Program-made: the position numbers and the translations under genes | The notes under the pieces: model-generated | Told to the model about the DNA's origin: nothing | Databases searched by the model: none | Seen by the model: the letters and a program-made list of their open reading frames with translations, nothing else | Virus record (IMG/VR): IMGVR_UViG_3300026848_000013 | Location: 1 to 37,563 of that record | Length of the DNA stretch: 37,563 bases | Reading direction: 5' to 3' (one strand) | Origin: a virus | Taxonomy: Duplodnaviria; Caudoviricetes | Part shown: positions 7,007 through 34,874 of the stretch, piece by piece | Layout of the letters: each line of letters starts with the position of its first letter | Numbering within the stretch: position 1 is the stretch's first letter

Positions 7007-7222
7007 ATGTCAAAGAAAAAGCCAAGCACAGTCTATCGCGTCGAACTGGTTGGCCATGACCTGATTTACGTCATCGCCCGCCACGAAAAAGGGGCTTTGA
7101 GCGTTGCGCTCCAGCACGGATATGAGCCGGATCGCAGCCCGTCGGCCAAGCCCCGGCGCGTTGATGACCTGTTCGCAGAACGGGCCATCAACCGCAAGAA
7201 CCCGGGTCAGGAAGCGGCATGA
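7007..7222 (+). CDS. Hypothetical protein
   Basis: GGAGG RBS; coupled to next ORF. Confidence 0.6.
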   Translation: MSKKKPSTVYRVELVGHDLIYVIARHEKGALSVALQHGYEPDRSPSAKPRRVDDLFAERAINRKNPGQEAA

Positions 7223-7443
7223 CCCCTCAAGCAAAGCTGGAAATCGTGATGGATCGCCTGCGTACCAGCACCAGCGCCTTGGAAGCTGACCGCGCACAGT
7301 TCTTTGATGCCGCAACCAACAAGGACGGCAAAATCGAACATGAAAGTGATGCCCGTCACCTCGCATATCTCGACGGCATGATCGCGGAAAACAAGGCCGC
7401 ATTAAACATTCAGGTCCAGCGCCGAAAAGTCGTTGGTGCCTGA
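7219..7443 (+). CDS. Hypothetical protein
   Basis: ATGA overlap; helical 74 aa. Confidence 0.6.
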   Translation: MTPQAKLEIVMDRLRTSTSALEADRAQFFDAATNKDGKIEHESDARHLAYLDGMIAENKAALNIQVQRRKVVGA

Positions 7444-7448
7444 TGTGA

Positions 7449-7669
7449 AACCGGGGCCGACCAAACCTGTTGCAAGTGCTTTTGGTTCGGCCCTGGTTAC
7501 CTCCAAACACCCCGTTACCCCGCTTGAAGGCAGGGTCGGGGCTTTGGGCTGAAACGTCTGGCCCGGACACGCAAGGGCAATTTGGCAACAGGTTGGGCAC
7601 CGGACCACGCAAAGGGCGAAACAGCAGGTGCTTACGACAATGGAGGCGACAATGAAAAAGGTCATTTAA
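7449..7669 (+). ncRNA. Candidate structured RNA with possible pseudoknot
   Basis: Stems 7449-7465/7481-7498, 7503-7547 and 7596-7601/7627-7632; loop 7466-7473 complementary to 7585-7592. Confidence 0.5.
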
Positions 7670-7686
7670 CCCAGAGAAACAAGCAA

Positions 7687-7719
7687 GTCGGGATGCATCC
7701 CCTCCCTGTGCATCCCGAC
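7687..7719. repeat. Perfect 11-bp inverted repeat with C-rich loop
   Basis: GTCGGGATGCA / TGCATCCCGAC. Confidence 0.8.
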
Positions 7720-7755
7720 CTTCGCCATAGCAACGAGCAGATCACGGTCTGCTGA

Positions 7756-7945
7756 TTGGTGCGGCGGCGTGGAAGCGAACACGTAGTGCTGACGAGTACG
7801 GGGTCTGTGCCCGGTGGTAGCCGGGAGGCGTCACGACAGGAACAGGCATTAAGCCAACAGCCTTTGCTGTCTGTTCTGTGAATTCAGATGATCCGGGTTC
7901 GAATCCAGGTGACCCAGAGCCGGAGTAGAGACCGGCCCGCACCAA
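7756..7945 (+). ncRNA. tRNA-like structured RNA with very large variable domain
   Basis: Acceptor-like TTGGTGCGG/CCGCACCAA; D-like GCGTG/CACGT; GTGCT/AGTAC hairpin; GGGTC/GACCC-closed domain with internal GGGTTCGAATCC; terminal GCCGG/CCGGC arm. Confidence 0.7.
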
Positions 7946-7990
7946 CGCTGAGTTTGAAGATCGAGCAAACAGATAAAACGAGGAACGAAA

Positions 7991-24922: not shown

Positions 24923-26873
24923 CTTCAACTCACAGGTCAAAGTTGATATGCGCGGCAATCTGGTCGCGGAAGCCAAACGCAACTCGCGTGCGGTTTCCGG
25001 GCTGGTGAGTTCGGCTGCGCGTGACTTTGGTAAACTGGGACAAGCGGCTGGAAGTCTTTCAAACGGGATTGATCGCCTGGGCAACCGCTATACCGGGCTT
25101 GCCACCGGCTTTGCAACCGGTGCGCTGGCTCGTGGTGTGATCAATGTTGATGCGCAGCTCAATCACATTGCCACCCGGATGAAAATGACCGGGGAACAGG
25201 CCGACGATCTTAAACAGAAACTTTACGATGCATCGAACAACGAGGCGATCCGTATGGACGTTTCGCAACTCGTTGACGGCATGACACAGGTTCTGGCCCT
25301 GACAGGTGATCTCGATTTCGCTGTGGCCAACATCGAAAATATTGGCATAGCCGCCCGTTCGTCCGGGTCGGCGGCATCAGACATCGCCAATGTGGTCGCA
25401 AACCTCAAGAAACTGGACATCAACACACCCGAACAAGTTGCCCTTGCCCTTGAAACCCTCATTGCCCAGGGCGATGCGGGCGCGGTTGAATTCAAGGATT
25501 TGGCAGCGGAATTCGGGCCATTGGCCAGCGCAATGGCCGCACTTGGCCAACGCGGCATGGGGGCGGTCAAGTTCCTTGGCGGCTTCATGCAAACGACGCA
25601 GGATACAACCGGCAGCGTTGCCGAAACTGGTACGGCAATCAGTGCCTTTTTGCGCGATATCAGTGCAAAGGGTGCGTTCCTTGAAAAGAACGGCATTACC
25701 GTCTTTGATGGCGACCAGATGCGCGAAGCAGACGCAATTCTGAAAGACATCTTCACCAAAGTATCTGCGGTTCAAAGCAAAACCAAACAGGTTGGTATGC
25801 TGCGTGACATTTTTGGCGATGAAAGCTATCGCGCCATCAGCCAGCTTTGGACCGACTATCAGGCCACCGGCAACTTCACGATGCTTGATCAGATGAAGAA
25901 TGTCGATGTTGGCAACGGTCAGATGAACCAGGACGCGATCAAACAGACACAGACGATGGCTGTTGCGATTGAAACCCTCAATACCGCACTTGCCCGTATG
26001 GCCGATGAAAACCTGTCAGAACCCATTCAAAGCCTTGCCGATGCGATTACCGGGTTGAGCAGCGAAGAGCTGGAAAACATCTTTGATATTGCCGCAAGCG
26101 GCGCAACGGCGGCGGCTGGTATCTGGGCTGTAAACAAAGCGATCCGGGGTACTGCTGCCGGTGTCCGTCTTGTCCAGGGATTGCGCGGGGGTGCCCGTGC
26201 AGGCGGAAAGGCCGCTGGCGCATTGGTCAGCGCCGCTGCGACCCCTGTGATCGTGACCAATTGGCCAACCGGTGGCGGTTATGGATATGGCGCAGATGCA
26301 GGCGGCGGAGGCAATAAAGGAACCAAAGGAAAAGGCCCACGTGTTCGTTCGGGTCGTTTTGGTGGCTTGGTATCGCTTGGCGCAAAGGCATCATCGGCAA
26401 CTGGCCTGACCAGTCTTGGAGCCAAGGCAGGAAAGCTCGTTCGTGGTGTCGGCCCGCTGGCAACCGGTCTGGCTGTTCTGAATATCGGATCGTCCGTCAT
26501 CGATGGCGATGCGCGTGGTGCAGCCGGTGCAACCGGAAGCCTTGGCGGCGCACTGGTCGGGGGTAAACTCGGTGCATTGGGCGGTGCGCTGGTTGGGCCG
26601 ATTGGCTCTGCAATCGGTGGTGTCATCGGCGCAGGCCTTGGGGCCTATTTTGGCGAGGAAGCTATCACCGGCCTTTATGACAAGTTCTTCTCAGGCGACA
26701 ACAACAATCCTGCATCCGGACAAAATAGCGAAGCCCTTGAACGCAATACGTCATCGCAGGAAAGACTTGCAAAAGCCATCGAGGACAATACCCGCGCCCA
26801 GGGCGTGATGGGCCGCCGCCAGCGCCGCGCACAACGCCTTGATATTGGCGCATTAGAGGGAGGTCAGCCGTGA
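24915..26873 (+). CDS. Tape measure protein
   Basis: Ala/Gly-rich helical 652 aa; GAVEFKDLA, TPVIVTNWP, Gly-rich hydrophobic C-terminal part. Confidence 0.92.
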   Translation: MNDFNSQVKVDMRGNLVAEAKRNSRAVSGLVSSAARDFGKLGQAAGSLSNGIDRLGNRYTGLATGFATGALARGVINVDAQLNHIATRMKMTGEQADDLKQKLYDASNNEAIRMDVSQLVDGMTQVLALTGDLDFAVANIENIGIAARSSGSAASDIANVVANLKKLDINTPEQVALALETLIAQGDAGAVEFKDLAAEFGPLASAMAALGQRGMGAVKFLGGFMQTTQDTTGSVAETGTAISAFLRDISAKGAFLEKNGITVFDGDQMREADAILKDIFTKVSAVQSKTKQVGMLRDIFGDESYRAISQLWTDYQATGNFTMLDQMKNVDVGNGQMNQDAIKQTQTMAVAIETLNTALARMADENLSEPIQSLADAITGLSSEELENIFDIAASGATAAAGIWAVNKAIRGTAAGVRLVQGLRGGARAGGKAAGALVSAAATPVIVTNWPTGGGYGYGADAGGGGNKGTKGKGPRVRSGRFGGLVSLGAKASSATGLTSLGAKAGKLVRGVGPLATGLAVLNIGSSVIDGDARGAAGATGSLGGALVGGKLGALGGALVGPIGSAIGGVIGAGLGAYFGEEAITGLYDKFFSGDNNNPASGQNSEALERNTSSQERLAKAIEDNTRAQGVMGRRQRRAQRLDIGALEGGQP

Positions 26874-28147: not shown

Positions 28148-29195
28148 TGTGCAGCTCTATGTGCGCGGTCAAATCTATAGCGGCTGGACCGAAGCCACCG
28201 TTACCAAAAGCCTTGATGCCATTTACGGAGAGGCAAAGCTGTCTCTGACCCGGTTGAATGAACAGGAAGCGGGAACCGTTCCGGCAATTCGCATCGATGA
28301 CGATGCCCGTTTGACCATCGATGGGCAAACCCGTATTGCCGGATATATCAAATCACGTGATCTCGATATCAACGAGGACGGGTTTGATCTGAACATCGTT
28401 GTTCATGACAAGACATCACGTCTGTTTCGCGGGTCTGTCGTCAACTTCCCTGGAGAATGGAAAAACCAGACCGCCCTTCAAATCATCGAAGCTGTGTGCA
28501 AGCCTTTTGGTGTGGTCGTCATGGCACAGGTACCAGTCGGCAAGCCATTTGAAAAATTTGCCGCCCAACCCGGTGATACAGCGGCAAAGGTGATTGAACG
28601 GGTTTGTCGCCACCGCGCCCTGATGGTCTATGCCGATAATAACGGACAACTCATTCTGACCACCGCCAAGGCAGCAACCATGCTTGCATCGGAAATCCGG
28701 TTTCACCCGGAAACCGGTAATGCACTGTCACTTTCGCTTAGTGAAGATATCCAGCACCGCCATAACGAATATATCTGTCATACCCAAAGCCCCGGCAGCA
28801 ATTGGGGAACTTCGGAACATTCCAAGGTTGTCGGACGGGCAAAAGATCGCGGCATCAGCAGCTATTGCCCCCTTGTGGTTATCGGTGATGAACCAGGCGA
28901 CGAAACCGCAATGACCAAACTGGCAACCACGACCGCTGCGATCAACGCCGCCCGTTCGGAAAGTCGCGATTACCTGATGGCCGGTTGCAAGTCCGATGAC
29001 GGAAAATTGTGGGATATCAACCAGAAAATTCGGATCGTTGACAGCATCGAAGGCCTGAACGCCATCCGGCTTATCAGCAAGATCGTATTCTCGATCTCTG
29101 ACGGCAAGGCCGATGAAACCATACTGACCGTCATGCATCCGGACGCCTATGAACTTGTGGCCGAACCGGAAAGCAAACCGGGGGAGGCATGGTAA
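28140..29195 (+). CDS. Baseplate hub (Mu gpP/gp44)
   Basis: YSGWTEATVTKSLDA, CKPFGV, QPGDTA motifs. Confidence 0.88.
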   Translation: MVDVQLYVRGQIYSGWTEATVTKSLDAIYGEAKLSLTRLNEQEAGTVPAIRIDDDARLTIDGQTRIAGYIKSRDLDINEDGFDLNIVVHDKTSRLFRGSVVNFPGEWKNQTALQIIEAVCKPFGVVVMAQVPVGKPFEKFAAQPGDTAAKVIERVCRHRALMVYADNNGQLILTTAKAATMLASEIRFHPETGNALSLSLSEDIQHRHNEYICHTQSPGSNWGTSEHSKVVGRAKDRGISSYCPLVVIGDEPGDETAMTKLATTTAAINAARSESRDYLMAGCKSDDGKLWDINQKIRIVDSIEGLNAIRLISKIVFSISDGKADETILTVMHPDAYELVAEPESKPGEAW

Positions 29196-29827
29196 TGAAC
29201 TACGAAAAACTCCTGGACACGCTCGACAACATCAAACTGCGGATCAAGCTGCTCTTAAGCCGCGCCACGGTCACATATGTTTATGTGATTGAAGACGGTA
29301 AAATGCGCAAGATACAGGTGCAAGGACTTGGCCTGAATGACGCGGTTGAACACGCAGAACCCTATGGGTTGGCAATGCATCCTCTGATCGGATCAGAAGC
29401 CTTTCTATCGTCCATTCTCGGCCAGCGCGGGCACCTTGTCGGCACACTGATCAGCGACCCGCGCTATCGCCCGACCGGAGACAAGCCGGGCGAGGTAATT
29501 CTCTGGTCGAAACATGGCCAGACGATCTGGCTGCATGATGACGGAACCTTGCGAATTTCCGCACCGAACAAAGTCGAAGTGACCGCCCCGGAAGTCACAA
29601 CCAACGCCCCGCTGATCAATGTCAACGGGACGAATGTGAACATTAATGCCCAGACGGTCGCGATCTCCGCCCAGAGCGCATCCCTTGATTGCAATGATAT
29701 CACCTTTGGCGGTGATGAAGACGCCCAGCCGGTCGCCCGGATTGGCGATCTGGTGAACGTCACTTCAGGCAGTTCGGCAGGGCTTTGGGAAATCGTATCA
29801 GGCTCCAGCAAAATGAGGGTCGGCTGA
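29195..29827 (+). CDS. Baseplate spike (Mu gp45)
   Basis: EHAEPYGLAMHP..G, DPRYRP..PGEV, VARIGD; ATG29189 is an alternative start. Confidence 0.88.
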   Translation: MNYEKLLDTLDNIKLRIKLLLSRATVTYVYVIEDGKMRKIQVQGLGLNDAVEHAEPYGLAMHPLIGSEAFLSSILGQRGHLVGTLISDPRYRPTGDKPGEVILWSKHGQTIWLHDDGTLRISAPNKVEVTAPEVTTNAPLINVNGTNVNINAQTVAISAQSASLDCNDITFGGDEDAQPVARIGDLVNVTSGSSAGLWEIVSGSSKMRVG

Positions 29828-30306
29828 TGGATATTGCATTCGTAAACCGCAATGGCACCGGCTTTGATCTTGCAACTGACGGCTATGACCTTGTGGTTGC
29901 CGATGGCCTGATCACAATGCTGATCCATGCGCTGTTTCGCGATGCCCGCGCCCCGGAAGGCACGATTGAACCCGGCACAGACCCGCGTGGTCATTGGGCA
30001 TCAAGTCTGACCGCAAATGCGCCGGAAGGAAGCCTGTTGTGGTTGATGAAGCGCGAAAAAATCACCCCGGATATGCCGCACCGGGTCTCGGAAACACTCG
30101 AACAGGCTTGCCAGTTCCTGATCGATGACACCGAAGGCGATGCAAGAAATGTCACAGACGTTCGGGCAATCGCGGAAAAATCATCCATTCGCGGGCGGAT
30201 CGAAGCGCAACTGAACGTCTATCTGTCAGGCATTTCCACACCGCGCCGTTTCACCTTTGTTTATGACCCGAATGCCGGGCGCTACAAGTTGGAGGAAATC
30301 GAGTAA
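29827..30306 (+). CDS. Baseplate protein (Mu gp46)
   Basis: LFRDARA, RGHW, GSLLWLMKREK. Confidence 0.88.
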   Translation: MDIAFVNRNGTGFDLATDGYDLVVADGLITMLIHALFRDARAPEGTIEPGTDPRGHWASSLTANAPEGSLLWLMKREKITPDMPHRVSETLEQACQFLIDDTEGDARNVTDVRAIAEKSSIRGRIEAQLNVYLSGISTPRRFTFVYDPNAGRYKLEEIE

Positions 30307-31418
30307 TGGCTTGGCCAGTTACCACCATTGCAGAACGGGAATTGCGCCTGCGCGAAGGGATTTCCACCGGTTTGAAACTTCCTGCTGTGCCGGGCCGCGC
30401 ATCCAATATCGGTGTTATCTCTGCCGAGGTATCCGGCGAGATCGATGATATTCATCAGCACATTCGGTACCAGGCGAAACAACGCTTTGCCAAGACTGCC
30501 GATATTGAGGGTCTAAGAACAATATCTGCGGAATACGGGATGGCGCAAAAAGCCGCCACAGCATCGGTTGGCGCAATTACCTTTGCCGGGGCAGATGGTG
30601 TAACACTTCAAGCAGGCGAACGCTGGAAACACGCAAACGGCCAGTTCTATGTCACGACCGAGAATGTGACGATTGCCGGTGGGTCCGCGACCGTTTCCGC
30701 CCAGGCAGAGGCAACCGGACCGGCGGGAAATCTTGCCGCAGGACAATCGCTTTCCCTTGTATCCCCGGTCGCCGGTGTTGCTTCAACTGCAACGGTGTCA
30801 ACCGCCTTTGCCGATGGACGCGCCATTGAGGGCGTCGAATCATTTCGCGCACGTATTCTGTATCGCCAGGCAAAACCGCCGATGGGTGGGTCCGACGCGG
30901 ATTACGTTGTTTGGGCGACCGAGATCAATGGTGTGGACGGGGTGTGGATTTCCCCCCAGGCGATGGGGTTAAACACCGTTACGGTACGGATAGCATCCTA
31001 TGACCAGAACGGCTGGCCGGTCCCGACCGAAAATATCCGTCAGGCCGTAGCAACCCATATCGACGGGCATATCAACGAATTCACCGGGCAGTGGGAAGGT
31101 CGTCCGTCCGGCGCACAGGTCTTTGTCGTCGTGATCGATGTCAAACTCATCGATCTCGATTTTTCAACCCTGATCCCGTCCGATACCAAGACACTCAACG
31201 CCATCGCAAGCAATGTGCAATCCCTGTTTCGCCGTTCGGGTGAACCAAATCAGCAAATCCGGGAAAGCTGGCTGCGGGCGGCGATTTCAGCCGCTGTTGG
31301 CGAGGACTATCACACGCTGGCCAGCCCTGTCGGCCCGATCACTTTGGGCGTCAATGAATTGCCGGTTCTCAATACCATCAAACTGAACGGGACGGTCCTG
31401 TGGGAGCGCCCGCTATGA
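30306..31418 (+). CDS. Baseplate J/gp47
   Basis: GPAGNL, FRARIL..PPMGGSDADYVVWA. Confidence 0.92.
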   Translation: MAWPVTTIAERELRLREGISTGLKLPAVPGRASNIGVISAEVSGEIDDIHQHIRYQAKQRFAKTADIEGLRTISAEYGMAQKAATASVGAITFAGADGVTLQAGERWKHANGQFYVTTENVTIAGGSATVSAQAEATGPAGNLAAGQSLSLVSPVAGVASTATVSTAFADGRAIEGVESFRARILYRQAKPPMGGSDADYVVWATEINGVDGVWISPQAMGLNTVTVRIASYDQNGWPVPTENIRQAVATHIDGHINEFTGQWEGRPSGAQVFVVVIDVKLIDLDFSTLIPSDTKTLNAIASNVQSLFRRSGEPNQQIRESWLRAAISAAVGEDYHTLASPVGPITLGVNELPVLNTIKLNGTVLWERPL

Positions 31419-32020
31419 TGACCACCGAGCAGAAAACAGACGCCTATGCCAATGCAATGATTGCGGGCCTGCCGCAAGGTCCGGCCTTCCCGCGTGAAGG
31501 GGCAGAAAACCGCGATGCGCTTATCCGCGCCATCGCCCGCGAGTTCGCGCTTGAAGACGATATGGTTGATCTGATGATGAGTGAGGCAAGCCCGCTCACT
31601 GCATCGATCACGATTGAGGAATGGGAATCCGATTTCGGCTTGCCCGATTGCGATCATCAACACGCCACCACCCTGCAAGAACGCCGTGCAGCCGTTCATG
31701 AAAAACGCACCCGCGTCGGGAGCCTCAACCCGAATGCCATCGTCGCGCTGGCCAAGAAGCTCGGATATGACGCCGAGGTCATCGAACGCCGCCCGTTCGT
31801 TGCGGGTTTGTCGCGCTGTGGGGACCGCCTTGGACGGGCGGATTGTCGTCTTTGGTGGACCGTGCGCGTCTATCAAGCTCGCATAACCCGGTTCAGAACC
31901 GGCGCGTCCAGGGCGGGCGAAAAACTCATGAGCATTGCACGGGCCGAGGATCTCGTTTGCGTCCTGGAACGCATCAACCACAGCCACTTGAAACTGACAT
32001 TCTCTTACGAGGGCAACTGA
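31415..32020 (+). CDS. Baseplate protein gp48 (YmfQ/DUF2313)
   Basis: LPQGPAF, EEWESDFGLPD, FRTGASRAGEKL. Confidence 0.9.
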   Translation: MMTTEQKTDAYANAMIAGLPQGPAFPREGAENRDALIRAIAREFALEDDMVDLMMSEASPLTASITIEEWESDFGLPDCDHQHATTLQERRAAVHEKRTRVGSLNPNAIVALAKKLGYDAEVIERRPFVAGLSRCGDRLGRADCRLWWTVRVYQARITRFRTGASRAGEKLMSIARAEDLVCVLERINHSHLKLTFSYEGN

Positions 32021-32022
32021 TC

Positions 32023-32619
32023 ATGGAATACGTAAAGCCACTTAATGAAACCGATCCGGACGCCCCGTACATCGACGGGGACGCCTCCCAGGATATCGAA
32101 GGGTCAGAAGTCCCGGCGGCGGCTATTGAAGACCCGATGCGCGAGATCGTAAACGCGATCACGTTTTTCCTCGGAACTGTCGAAAATCCGCTTCCGGCTT
32201 CCGGCGAAGACTTGCAGCAATTGCGCAAGGCAATCCAGAAGGCCGTTGCGGATGGTACTGCCAATGGCCTGTTTCGGGATATCCCTGCGACCTTGGTCGC
32301 CGGTTTCAACACCGAGTTCCTTGACCTGACGGTCGCCGCCGGTGTGGCGACCTTCGATCCAACCGCCCGCAGCCGGTTCAAGCATGTTCTGGATGACGCG
32401 GTCCTGATCGATAACCCGGCTGTGATCCCGAATGCTGGGCCTGCGATGATCAAGATCACGCAGGATGGTACCGGCAACCACGCGGTTGACTGGGGCACGA
32501 AATATCGTGTGACCGGCGATGTCAATTATACCGCCAACTCGGTCAGCCTATGCCAGCTTCAGTATGACGCTGCTGACGATGTTATCGACGTTGTGATTAC
32601 CCAGCGTCCGGAGGCCTGA
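32023..32619 (+). CDS. Proximal tail fibre/adaptor
   Basis: YIDGD..GSEVPAAAIEDPMREIVNAI..DLQQLRKAI baseplate-attachment motif; C-terminal ITQDGTG domain. Confidence 0.75.
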   Translation: MEYVKPLNETDPDAPYIDGDASQDIEGSEVPAAAIEDPMREIVNAITFFLGTVENPLPASGEDLQQLRKAIQKAVADGTANGLFRDIPATLVAGFNTEFLDLTVAAGVATFDPTARSRFKHVLDDAVLIDNPAVIPNAGPAMIKITQDGTGNHAVDWGTKYRVTGDVNYTANSVSLCQLQYDAADDVIDVVITQRPEA

Positions 32620-32621
32620 TC

Positions 32622-34874
32622 ATGTCGCTTTTGATGGAAAATAGCGTGGCCAAGATCGGCTGCGGTGATCCGGGTGATCCGATTGATTTTGCTGCCCTGT
32701 TCGACGGCGACGGCAACGGTGAAGCTCAACTAACACCGCCAGCCACAGCGACAAACAAGTTCGTGATTTCCGTCTATGTCAAGCGCGTGAAACTTGATGG
32801 GCAGACGTTCATTTGCTCGGCGGCAACATCTACCACCAATCGTTTCTGGTTCTATATCACGATAGGCGGGCAGTTGCGGGCCTTTGATCAGACAGCAACC
32901 GGTGTTTTGCCTTTCGACTTCACAACGGCGGAGGTTTTCAGGGATGGAGCCAAGCCGTATCACATCATCATGGATTACAATGAGGGCGATGTAACCTTTA
33001 TCGTCGGCGGGATAGTTGTTACGGAATTCAGTGTCGCGGTCGCGGCTTCTGCCGGGCATGTTCCGCGCTGGAACATGGCAATTCCACACCGGATCAGTTC
33101 CACGTCCTCGACTTCGGGCGGTGTGAACTTTTCGCATGGCTATCTTTCCGACTTCAAATGTATTGCCGGAAAATCCATAGCAGCGGGCGATTTGTCCCTA
33201 AGCGATTTTGGCAGGTTCAATGCCTATGGGCATTGGGTTCACAACACATTCCCCGGAATTGGCGGCGGAGCAGCGGCCTATGGAGCGGCGGGCTTCCATC
33301 AAAACTACGCGGACCCGATTGACTTGGGCAAAGATGTATCCGGTAACGGTAACCATTTCACGGTGGCTGGGGATGTTGAACAGGTAGTAGATACGCCCTT
33401 CAACAATGCCACGACCTTTAGCCCGATAGATACAGGTGGTGCAGTTTTGTCTGATGGAAACCGTACCATGAATAGTACGGGATCAACCCCACGTAACCCT
33501 GTTCGGGTCGGCAAGCCGATCAGGGGTAAAAAATATGCTGAATTCATTTCTCTGGATGGTGGTGGTATCGGCAATGCAACGATCGGAATTGCAGACGTTA
33601 CCCGATCATTTGATAGCAACTCGCGGCCTGATTACAGCTATGACCAGAATGGTGGTGAATTGCTTGAGGATGGTGTTGAAATCCTTACCACTGGCGATGC
33701 TTACAATTTTGGAGAAACTATTTCTGTCTCGGTTGATACTGAAAACAGCATTGCGGTATGGAAGCGCGAAAACGTCGTTCAGTACACCGTTGCGATTGAT
33801 CCGTCCAAGACCTATGCATTTGCTGTCGGTGATAACTCGACGACTTATGCAGCAACTATCCGTGCTGTTCTTACGGATGACGGGTTTAAGTACCAGCCAG
33901 ATGCGGGTTTTACGTCTCAGGAAAGCGCCTTTGACAACTGCCCGGACATTCTTGATCCACAGGATTATGTTGTCGAAAACCTTGCCATCGGTGGTGACGG
34001 GTTCGCTTCTTGCCCGTTCAGCCTACTGTCCAACAAATGTGCAGTGCTTTCGCGTCGGTATGATCAGGCAAGTCATTGGCGGTTGACGACCACTTTGCGC
34101 GGTCCCGGCAAGTTCCTCTCAACCAGTGAGCCGGGCGTCGGTGAAATCACCGGCGAAGAAGGACTTGATGCCTTCACCCACAACGGCTTCACGATCAGCG
34201 CAACAGCTGCAGATGAATGGCTTGGCAGTCGTTATGACCTTGTGATCCGGGCGAGCGCGCTGGCCGGAATTGATATCTTTGAATTTACCCATGTGAACGG
34301 TACGCCCTCGGTTGTTGACCAGAACACCGGTGGCGTCATCGAGGAGCTTTGGTTGTTCCCCATTTCAGGCGGCAATGTTCGCATTTTCAATGCCGCGATG
34401 GGCGATGACAAATACCTTGTCATGAGCAATACCAATACGGCTGCGACGGACACGGGCTGGATTTCAAGAACGGCCAATCAGGTCACTTTTGACGGTTCAT
34501 TGGCGAATGGTGATTACGTTGCCATAGCGTTTCGTTCCGTTGCGCAGTTCTCAGGTTTTGATAGCGGCACGGGAACGGGTAGTGCAACGGCTGGGCTTTT
34601 CTGTCCACGCGATCATTCGCCGCTGGTTTGCATCACAACCCGCCAAAACGGTTCTACGAAATGGCTGCATTCCAAGGCCCTGAATGTTGGCAATCCGAGC
34701 GTCAATCACCTTTCGCTGGGTAGCAACGCAGTGCTTGGTACATCGGGAACCGAGAAAGACATCCTGTCCAACGGTGTGCGCATGATGTCAGCAAACAATG
34801 ACAATGCGTCTGGCAATAAAATTCTTGTCAGCACCCTTGCTTATCAACCCGGAAAATTTGCAACTGCGCGATAG
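32622..34874 (+). CDS. Putative receptor-binding/tail fibre protein (LamG/SPRY-like beta domains)
   Basis: Gly/Thr/Ser-rich; ISVYVKR, GYLSDF, LGKDVSGNGNHFT..DTPFNN; position. Confidence 0.7.
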   Translation: MSLLMENSVAKIGCGDPGDPIDFAALFDGDGNGEAQLTPPATATNKFVISVYVKRVKLDGQTFICSAATSTTNRFWFYITIGGQLRAFDQTATGVLPFDFTTAEVFRDGAKPYHIIMDYNEGDVTFIVGGIVVTEFSVAVAASAGHVPRWNMAIPHRISSTSSTSGGVNFSHGYLSDFKCIAGKSIAAGDLSLSDFGRFNAYGHWVHNTFPGIGGGAAAYGAAGFHQNYADPIDLGKDVSGNGNHFTVAGDVEQVVDTPFNNATTFSPIDTGGAVLSDGNRTMNSTGSTPRNPVRVGKPIRGKKYAEFISLDGGGIGNATIGIADVTRSFDSNSRPDYSYDQNGGELLEDGVEILTTGDAYNFGETISVSVDTENSIAVWKRENVVQYTVAIDPSKTYAFAVGDNSTTYAATIRAVLTDDGFKYQPDAGFTSQESAFDNCPDILDPQDYVVENLAIGGDGFASCPFSLLSNKCAVLSRRYDQASHWRLTTTLRGPGKFLSTSEPGVGEITGEEGLDAFTHNGFTISATAADEWLGSRYDLVIRASALAGIDIFEFTHVNGTPSVVDQNTGGVIEELWLFPISGGNVRIFNAAMGDDKYLVMSNTNTAATDTGWISRTANQVTFDGSLANGDYVAIAFRSVAQFSGFDSGTGTGSATAGLFCPRDHSPLVCITTRQNGSTKWLHSKALNVGNPSVNHLSLGSNAVLGTSGTEKDILSNGVRMMSANNDNASGNKILVSTLAYQPGKFATAR

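Follow-up and report, generated by a model that had tools for sequence, protein, structure and literature searches.

tRNA-like frames without an anticodon arm enclose exchangeable inserts in phage genomes and share their core with T5 RNA2

Introduction

Some stable RNAs encoded in the tRNA regions of phages resemble tRNAs. The T5 genome carries RNA2 (NC_005859.1, positions 32959 to 33083, T5s06), which is annotated as a "tRNA-like stable RNA with unknown functions" and is known here from that label; its annotated ends give an 8-bp helix followed by ACA. RNA2 was kept over at least 80% of its length in 417 phage records, and a search of the T5 region assigned it to no Rfam family. According to the available part of a preprint (bioRxiv 10.1101/2024.01.02.573894), T5_Mos lacks positions 30661 to 38625 and grows; the deletion would include RNA2, subject to a possible offset of the coordinates. 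T5 RNA1 and the T4 species 1 and 2 RNAs (rnaC and rnaD) are also stable phage RNAs of tRNA regions with no assigned function.

tRNA-like architectures are found in several other systems. In the engineered tRNA scaffold, the acceptor, D, and T arms are kept and the anticodon arm is swapped for a chosen RNA, and host enzymes process and protect the product, as described in the available part of PMC3753655. The YrlA Y RNAs, which adjoin the Ro60 gene, are tRNA mimics with D and T arms that occur in phages and are in some cases cut by RNase P (PMC4201824, available part). The allo-tRNAs of bacteria and phages are irregular, with longer acceptor stems, an 8/4 or 9/3 branch, an anticodon arm, and a V arm, and some of them act outside translation (PMC5389517, available part). 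In tmRNA, tRNA-like ends surround a large domain.

Here, we analyzed an RNA element in a window of 37,563 nucleotides (the whole stretch of DNA under analysis) from a Mu-like phage. The original prediction, made from the sequence, described the element as a phage tRNA mimic that cannot decode mRNA. The element resembles tmRNA in its tRNA-like ends around a large domain, but it has a D stem and lacks the G3-U70 pair, the CCA end, and the tag reading frame. Unlike allo-tRNAs, it has an 8-9/5 branch and no anticodon arm; the 5-bp anticodon arm with a 7-nt loop and U33 of canonical tRNA (RF00005) is replaced by an arm with a 4-nt loop. It had no YrlA match in Rfam, and no Ro60 match was found among the 39 ORFs of the window or 72 neighboring ORFs of related loci. 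The engineered scaffold is artificial and has a canonical core, and its likeness to the element is only a functional analogy.

Results

Genomic setting of the element

The window contains genes for a repressor, a Mu transposase, an AAA protein, DUF3164, GemA, Mor, a Mu portal protein, and tail proteins. The host genus is probably Thalassospira, judging from the sequences of the nearest named relatives (prophages L341 and L342). Within the early accessory region, the element occupies part of a 550-nt noncoding gap (7444-7990). It is on the operon strand and stands alone between genes of one operon. It was also found at 99% identity or more in contigs of two other runs (X3 and X4), and locus L391 has the same sequence. 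An assembly error was excluded for the element because the X3 and X4 contigs cover it. No promoter of its own was found upstream on the + strand, and the only terminator-like site falls inside the insert, referred to below as the cargo. A minus-strand ORF of 67 codons (7742-7945) was ruled out as a gene, as relatives delete or replace its middle. An integration-site remnant was also ruled out, since the phage is transposable and the family model R1 (described below) had no match at two host tRNA loci.

The same gap holds further structures upstream of the element. A long hairpin (7449-7498, loop CCTGTTRCA) directly follows the stop codon of ORF 7219-7443, had no match in Rfam, and is kept with stem changes in L008 to L011, L013 to L015, L390, L394, and L401, even where the tRNA-like element is absent. 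In the window, the region around 7466 may pair over 10 nt with 7585-7595, forming a possible switch. At 7510-7669 lies a module in which a hairpin with a TTGAAG loop is combined with a strong ribosome-binding site and a mini-ORF of five codons (7652-7669). Homologous modules, each with a 5-codon ORF, follow the element in L008 and precede it in L399, and the start codon is gone in L009 and in run X5. A third hairpin (7688-7719) has a perfect 11-bp stem and a pyrimidine-rich loop resembling an anti-Shine-Dalgarno sequence, and a similar arm sequence was seen within the insert of L005.

Parts of the element

The features of the element and of the hairpin next to it were as follows.

7736..7753, + strand: hairpin immediately upstream of the element; retained, with changes in the stem, in L009, L015, L390, L394, L399, and L401 (by eye)
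7756..7945, + strand: whole tRNA-shell element, 190 bases; 44.8 bits, E value 7.6e-7 with family model R1
7756..7764, + strand: closing (acceptor-like) helix, 5' strand, 9 bp; core 7758-7764/7937-7943, extending to 7756/7945
7765..7784, + strand: CG linker (C8, G9), then a 5-bp D stem whose loop is GAAGCGAA; D-stem covariation; D-like arm itself at 7767-7784
7786..7799, + strand: short arm in place of the anticodon arm (5 bp, GACG loop), unable to decode; present in 7 homologues, with two-sided change in 2 pairs
7801..7915, + strand: cargo, a nested degenerate tRNA-like unit closed by GGGTC/GACCC (7801-7805/7911-7915)
7810..7825, + strand: inner D-like hairpin, TGGTAG loop; 2 of 5 pairs with two-sided change
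7836..7879, + strand: 12-bp helix (7836-7848/7868-7879) with a 19-nt loop (7849-7867); of 12 pairs, 3 changed on both sides and 5 on one side
7893..7909, + strand: inner canonical T arm (TTCGAAT), one G-A mismatch in the window copy; 3 of 5 pairs changed on both sides
7918..7936, + strand: conserved A and outer T hairpin with the noncanonical loop AGTAGAGA; arm itself at 7919-7936
7937..7945, + strand: closing helix, 3' strand, with no encoded CCA (read from the sequence)

The acceptor with its 9-bp extension, the D-like arm, the arm with the GACG loop, the GGGTC/GACCC helix, the hairpin at 7810-7825, the helix from 7836 to 7879, the inner T arm, and the terminal arm had all been placed correctly in the original prediction. 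The two small hairpins that it had drawn within the long helix did not hold, as they are broken in L008, L010, and L390 and have ensemble probabilities of 0.0 and 0.3; the homologues favor a 12-bp helix with a 19-nt loop in their place. If its ends correspond to those annotated for T5 RNA2, the mature RNA is likely to extend from about 7757 to 7947. Once the transcript is cut, the hairpin at 7736-7753 would be left at the 3' end of the upstream fragment and protect it.

Comparative and thermodynamic support

The structure was evaluated against homologues, a covariance model, and shuffled sequences. Among 6 to 7 close homologues, 90.5% of the cells in the alignment were paired, compared with 38 to 45% for slid controls, and 13 of 51 pairs were changed on both sides. 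Model R1, a covariance model from 32 short members of the family that was built without the window and with its close relative L009, gave the window 44.8 bits. The folding z-score was -2.33, and 5 of 200 shuffles folded equally well. ARAGORN called no gene at the element, and Rfam gave no match for the window at the gathering level and two chance miRNA matches at an E value of 10 or less around the element. The element is a real, selected RNA structure and not a chance fold.

In the thermodynamic ensemble of the window copy, the acceptor, D arm, and mini-arm were near certain, whereas the probabilities were 0.14 for the outer T hairpin and 0.01 for the inner one, and the cloverleaf had an energy of -68.5 kcal/mol compared with -79.6 kcal/mol for the minimum-energy fold. 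The low T-hairpin probabilities are attributed to several CCGG blocks that are able to mispair. The family median for the outer T hairpin was 0.91, and 18% of the members fell below 0.2. The closing-pair probability of the inner T arm was 0.96 in L008, 0.9 in L010, 0.8 in L014, and 0.07 in L390. Judged from the sequences, both T arms of the window copy are supported by comparison and not by energy.

Relation to T5 RNA2

The closest described RNA is T5 RNA2. Using model R1 on the T5 and T4 tRNA regions, RNA2 was the top match (17.4 bits, E value 0.009), while the true tRNAs scored at most 9.3 bits. Four of five RNA2-like loci scored 20.4 to 28.9 bits, and the fifth, from Acinetobacter, had no match. 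That locus (L439; OQ627712.1, Acinetobacter phage AB1I1M-1) has the inner module of RNA2 within another kind of tRNA-like frame. T5 RNA1 and T4 rnaC have a T arm, as in the window, but neither T5 RNA1 nor T4 rnaC and rnaD gave a full-length match, and the D loop of RNA1 is an ordinary GG/GGTA loop.

The RNA2-type core, which was defined here from RNA2 and its homologues, was found in the window. Both RNAs have a closing helix of 8 bp or longer ending in G-C, a CG linker, a 5-bp D stem, and a D loop running from G to A (GAGAGGGGA in RNA2 homologues versus GAAAGCAGA). Both also have an A before a T stem that starts with G, no anticodon arm, no CCA, and a second T hairpin in the insert. The two differ in the elbow, which is of the canonical GG/TTCRA type in RNA2 and in other family members and is remodeled to GAAGCGAA and AGTAGAGA in the window. 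In its outer body, the window has C8 and G14 where canonical tRNA has U8 and A14, and its T loop is not of the TTC type. They also differ in cargo and setting: RNA2 has a 65-nt insert and lies in the tRNA array of a lytic phage, while the element of the window, with an unrelated 134-nt insert that has D and T arms of its own, lies in the early operon of a temperate Mu-like phage. The insert sequence of RNA2 was not found in the window. BLAST of the element gave five matches in phages, which were chance or T-arm matches with no T5-like record among them, and none in plasmids. The element of the window is thus a temperate-phage relative, with a recoded elbow and a nested cargo, of a kind known only as the T5 RNA2 label. 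The earlier description of an undescribed system was too strong, since the core is common to RNA2, although RNA2 is known only as a GenBank label without a function.

A family of shells in phages and prophages

The frame was searched from each of its two arms. An exact search with the D arm returned eight viral loci, five of which had the same frame around unrelated middles. A 20-nt T-arm pattern found at least 120 loci (about 270 estimated), and 93 of 116 nonredundant loci had both a D hairpin upstream and an acceptor that matched, compared with 54 of 566 swapped-acceptor controls. A D-arm pattern with the loop left free also found at least 120 loci (about 1,000 stretches estimated in IMG/VR), and a T hairpin and acceptor were present in 85 of the 120 sampled loci, compared with 12 of 579 controls. 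About 130 stretches were found in GTDB genomes; among the 80 titles listed, many were Alphaproteobacteria, and Pseudomonas, Comamonadaceae, and others were also present, although such assignments are uncertain for small MAG contigs. A detector run over the gathered loci found 239 nonredundant elements and none in 286,498 shuffled bases. One element at a locus edge was dropped, leaving a family set of 238 phage or prophage loci.

The family frame consists of an 8- to 9-bp closing helix, a CG linker, a 5-bp D stem with a loop running from G to A, an A, and a T hairpin, without CCA. The closing helix ranged from 7 to 14 bp with a mode of 9, and pairs 8 and 9 were formed in 83% and 64% of members, compared with 40% and 38% in the swapped control. 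Because the detector demands seven pairs and the searches fix parts of the stems, figures on stem conservation are biased, and the fair tests of the frame are the swap controls and the loops left free. The linker was CG in 82 of 90 T-anchored members, the A preceding the outer T stem was present in 115 of 136 D-anchored members, and CCA was encoded at positions 74 to 76 in 10 of 239. The distal acceptor pairs vary freely, and sequence conservation was highest at the junction core and the loops. None of the 238 members had an anticodon arm of 5 bp and 7 nt, and the D/T elbow is kept in the family, in agreement with a tRNA mimic that does not decode.

The surroundings of the members were also compared. 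A tRNA called by ARAGORN lay within 450 nt of 26 of the 238 members, on the same strand in 24 of those 26, and tandem copies occurred in L202, L224, and L229. Only 3 nt separate the element from a second tRNA-like unit in L010 (6140-6277) and L014 (6127-6265); this unit has a canonical T loop and is closed by an 11-bp helix, and the gene after it is one that we take to resemble DUF2312/GapR. Strong hairpins were present within 45 nt upstream in 22% of 157 members, compared with 7 to 13% in five control windows, and a ribosome-binding site was present within 60 nt downstream in 44 of 157, compared with 12 of 157. Promoters and terminators were not enriched around the 157 members. The 72 neighboring ORFs, hand-picked from 32 genome loci, had no common gene, and their PHROG matches were scattered (terminase, endolysin, HNH, CsrA-like, and unknown). 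In L042, a family member is preceded by a Rfam Proteo-phage-1 RNA (234-314), at a distance of about 210 nt and on the same strand. In L267 (PP179326.1, 3001-3474), a hypothetical CDS (Orimi01_00061) overlaps an element over its full length and may have been called in error.

No Rfam family covered the frame in 20 short-insert loci, 20 long-insert loci, and the T5 region; the matches near the shells were only neighbors (tRNA, Proteo-phage-1, and abiF) and a tRNA nested within L002. BLAST of one short member against E. coli genomes gave no match. Model R1 matched in at least 2 of 37 genomes of the relatives' genus, with 101 candidates scored per genome and a known copy in G002 missed. The family was undescribed in the literature searched, and the available parts of PMC5389517, PMC2864571, PMC3753655, PMC4201824, PMC12483538, and the PARIS preprint (bioRxiv 10.1101/2024.01.02.573894) gave no account of it. 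Halves of the frame may be among the 10,006 candidates of PMC10690425; four motifs had no match in three of its six supplements. Members are present in the cultured Caulobacter phage DMCA (PQ480021.1, near 25554-25686), Pseudomonas phages Orimi01 and PotUPM1, Ochrobactrum phage POI1126, and T5.

Variants of the shell were also seen. The D loop appears as a second insertion slot in L028, L043, L053, L082, L120, and L400, with hairpins of up to about 45 nt between GAAAG and AGA. In L399 (1514-1670) and L401 (1513-1600), the closing helix and flanks are kept while the D and T arms are different; model R1 gave only 16.9 bits for L401 and nothing for L399, so that further shell types share this slot.

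Coupling of the D and T loops

Among the 72 members in which both loops were left free by the searches, the D and T loops covaried. A D-loop GG occurred with a T-loop TC in 35 members and with GCG or GCA in 1, while a D-loop GC occurred with GCG or GCA in 14 and with TC in 2; 20 members had other combinations (Fisher's test, P of about 1e-9, for members that are not independent). A third class of eight members showed GG/TC, AG/GC, and AA/GT combinations at the 18-55 and 19-56 positions, so at least three different elbow codes coexist in the family. The same cargo was found in both elbow classes (L261 versus L271, L323, and L328).

The window belongs to the GC/AGTAG class of loops. In the tertiary numbering of tRNA, U8 contacts A14. 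The CG linker, together with a D loop running from G to A, suggests by analogy that C8-G14 takes the place of this contact in the frame. Position 6 of the outer T loop is A in the window and C in 76 of 77 members of its class. The D-loop GC is lost in L390 and L394, and the T loop has 7 nt in L008 and L009. On account of the A in the window and these other departures in its relatives, the outer elbow seems relaxed in this lineage, and the window copy may be partly so.

Cargo of the shells

The inserts of the 238 members ranged from 22 to 270 nt (median, 92) and formed 209 clusters, of which 194 were singletons. Their folding was slightly better than that of shuffles (mean z-score, -0.47), and many inserts may be passive because the average is barely above shuffles. 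An inner T-loop hairpin was present in 11 of 238 inserts, compared with 0.17 expected. The nested unit of L002 matches the tRNA family in Rfam (41.2 bits), and L428 shows a nested unit by eye. A pattern of ribosome-binding site, ATG, and stop codon occurred in 4 of 238 inserts, anti-Shine-Dalgarno words in 24, and Shine-Dalgarno words in 44.

In the window lineage, the insert consists of a weak closing helix (GGGTC/GACCC, 70% of cells paired in the homologue alignment), a TGGTAG D-like hairpin, the loop-bearing long helix, and a canonical T arm in which compensatory changes were seen. TGGYA of the D-like hairpin is kept in the window, L008, L010, L390, and L394. The 12-bp helix was paired in 91% of cells, and the 19-nt loop was conserved in five homologues. 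From these sequence comparisons, the cargo is under selection in this lineage, and the 19-nt loop at 7849-7867 is a candidate recognition surface. The nested tRNA-like nature of the 115-nt domain and its exchangeability had not been part of the original prediction. The cargo is deleted in L009 and in run X5 and replaced in L014, L015, and L400. The closing helix of L399 and L401 is retained and bears other arms, and the element is absent from the relatives L011 and L013, thereby indicating that it is dispensable.

Targets were sought for the inserts and for the 19-nt loop. The complementarity of inserts to their own flanks showed no excess (9.24 versus 9.08 nt in 38 loci; 7.62 versus 7.63 nt in 151 loci). 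In the window, the best other site for the 19-nt loop had one mismatch in 11 nt, on the minus strand, and 33 sites at two mismatches, compared with a shuffle mean of 17, were scattered in coding DNA. In the 37 genomes of the relatives' genus, the loop matched only prophage-like copies and the T arms of host tRNA-Gln.

Discussion

We propose that the element is a tRNA-derived frame without an anticodon arm that holds an exchangeable insert, and that it is excised as a stable RNA whose insert serves as an accessory effector; we assign this reading a probability of about 0.5. The element would be transcribed within the Mu-like early operon, given the shared strand and the lack of an own promoter, and host tRNA-maturation enzymes would cut it from the early transcript as a stable RNA. 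RNase P would cut 7 to 8 bp from the junction, and 3' trimming would follow. The RNA would fold into an L-shaped elbow, with C8-G14 replacing U8-A14, and would offer this elbow and a 12- to 14-bp stack to processing enzymes, with no identity for synthetases or the ribosome. Like the engineered tRNA scaffold, the frame would shield what it carries. In the window this is the second tRNA-like unit with the conserved 19-nt loop, which would act as the accessory effector, the loop presumably being directed at a target in trans. Release as a stable RNA is favored by the same-strand tRNA neighbors (24 of 26), the tandem copies, and the annotation of RNA2. As modeled, the geometry (7 to 9 bp plus 5 bp, with coupled D and T loops) would fit an RNase P substrate by the generally known determinants of this enzyme. 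Pairing at positions 8 and 9 could hinder RNase P, which counts against the mechanism. Of the roles offered in the original prediction, a processing signal or a scaffold appears to fit the sequence evidence best.

The frame could instead act in cis as a portable RNase P/Z cutting and stabilizing signal that splits the early mRNA, leaving the RNA and its insert as by-products. The enrichment of hairpins just upstream and of ribosome-binding sites just downstream would fit such punctuation, as would inserts that tolerate almost anything and fold weakly on average, and a location between genes of one operon in the window or first in a divergent operon in Orimi01. However, no message lies downstream in Persinger, where the element follows the integrase and precedes a terminator-like hairpin, or in DMCA, where the next gene is convergent; tandem and tRNA-array copies and the covariation inside the window cargo also argue against this explanation, which we consider unlikely. 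Conservation that peaks at the junction core and loops would also be expected of a decoy, in which the top half, here together with the second elbow, titrates a host processing, modifying, surveillance, or defense protein that binds tRNA elbows or acceptor helices, and the insert is a spacer. The excess of inner T hairpins, the second T hairpin of T5 RNA2, and the patchy presence among close phages point in the same direction. This idea is quite unlikely, since three or more elbow codes coexist, unlike a fixed protein epitope, the 72 neighboring ORFs share no common gene, and the outer loops seem relaxed in the window lineage.

The window copy alone could be decaying within a real family, starting to lose its fold. 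Three C-to-A departures from the relatives lie within 25 nt (7907, 7929, and 7931), one of them breaking the inner T stem and another hitting a nearly invariant loop base, and both T arms have low ensemble probabilities; yet the remaining helices are intact, the family model still gives 44.8 bits, and the identical sequence recurs in runs X3 and X4 and in L391, which makes decay improbable. C4-type RNAs are processed by RNase P, and a loop of the processed RNA could pair with its own operon in a C4/CI-like manner, for example with the CCTGTTRCA loop at 7449-7498, and control early transcription. The CAACAG of the cargo loop complements CTGTTG of that upstream loop over 6 nt, a match seen after the fact. 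Such antisense control is very improbable, as inserts show no excess complementarity to their flanks, L011 and L013 have the upstream hairpin without the element, and Rfam C4 (RF01695) gave no match. The decoy for anticodon nucleases named in the original prediction draws on phage origin and tRNA shape only and is scarcely credible. There is no anticodon loop to recognize in the element or its 238-member family, and AriB of PARIS recognizes the anticodon loop, according to the available part of bioRxiv 10.1101/2024.01.02.573894. In the same source, T5_123 is PARIS sensitive, although its deletion (29191-32442) seems to spare RNA2 (32959-33083), with coordinates that may differ.

Returning to the frame with an effector insert, a broader form of this proposal is speculative and more doubtful than the proposal itself. 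The shell would be an orthogonal tRNA chassis, with a C8-G14 core and its own elbow codes, that serves as a natural cassette for interchangeable RNA effectors, or "RNA morons," in temperate and lytic phages of many hosts. It would be seen by tRNA-processing enzymes, whereas synthetases, ribosomes, and anticodon nucleases would not recognize it. One case would be T5 RNA2, and the two-elbow cargo of the window, with its 19-nt loop, would be aimed at a host RNA or protein.

The analysis links the orphan GenBank label T5 RNA2 to a widespread family of phage elements that escapes tRNA finders and Rfam. Because members are present in cultured phages, their processing and function are directly testable, and the natural covariation of the loops provides ready-made tests of tRNA elbow recoding. 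If the cargo is functional, phages would have their own natural version of the tRNA scaffold, together with a pool of unexplored RNA effectors.
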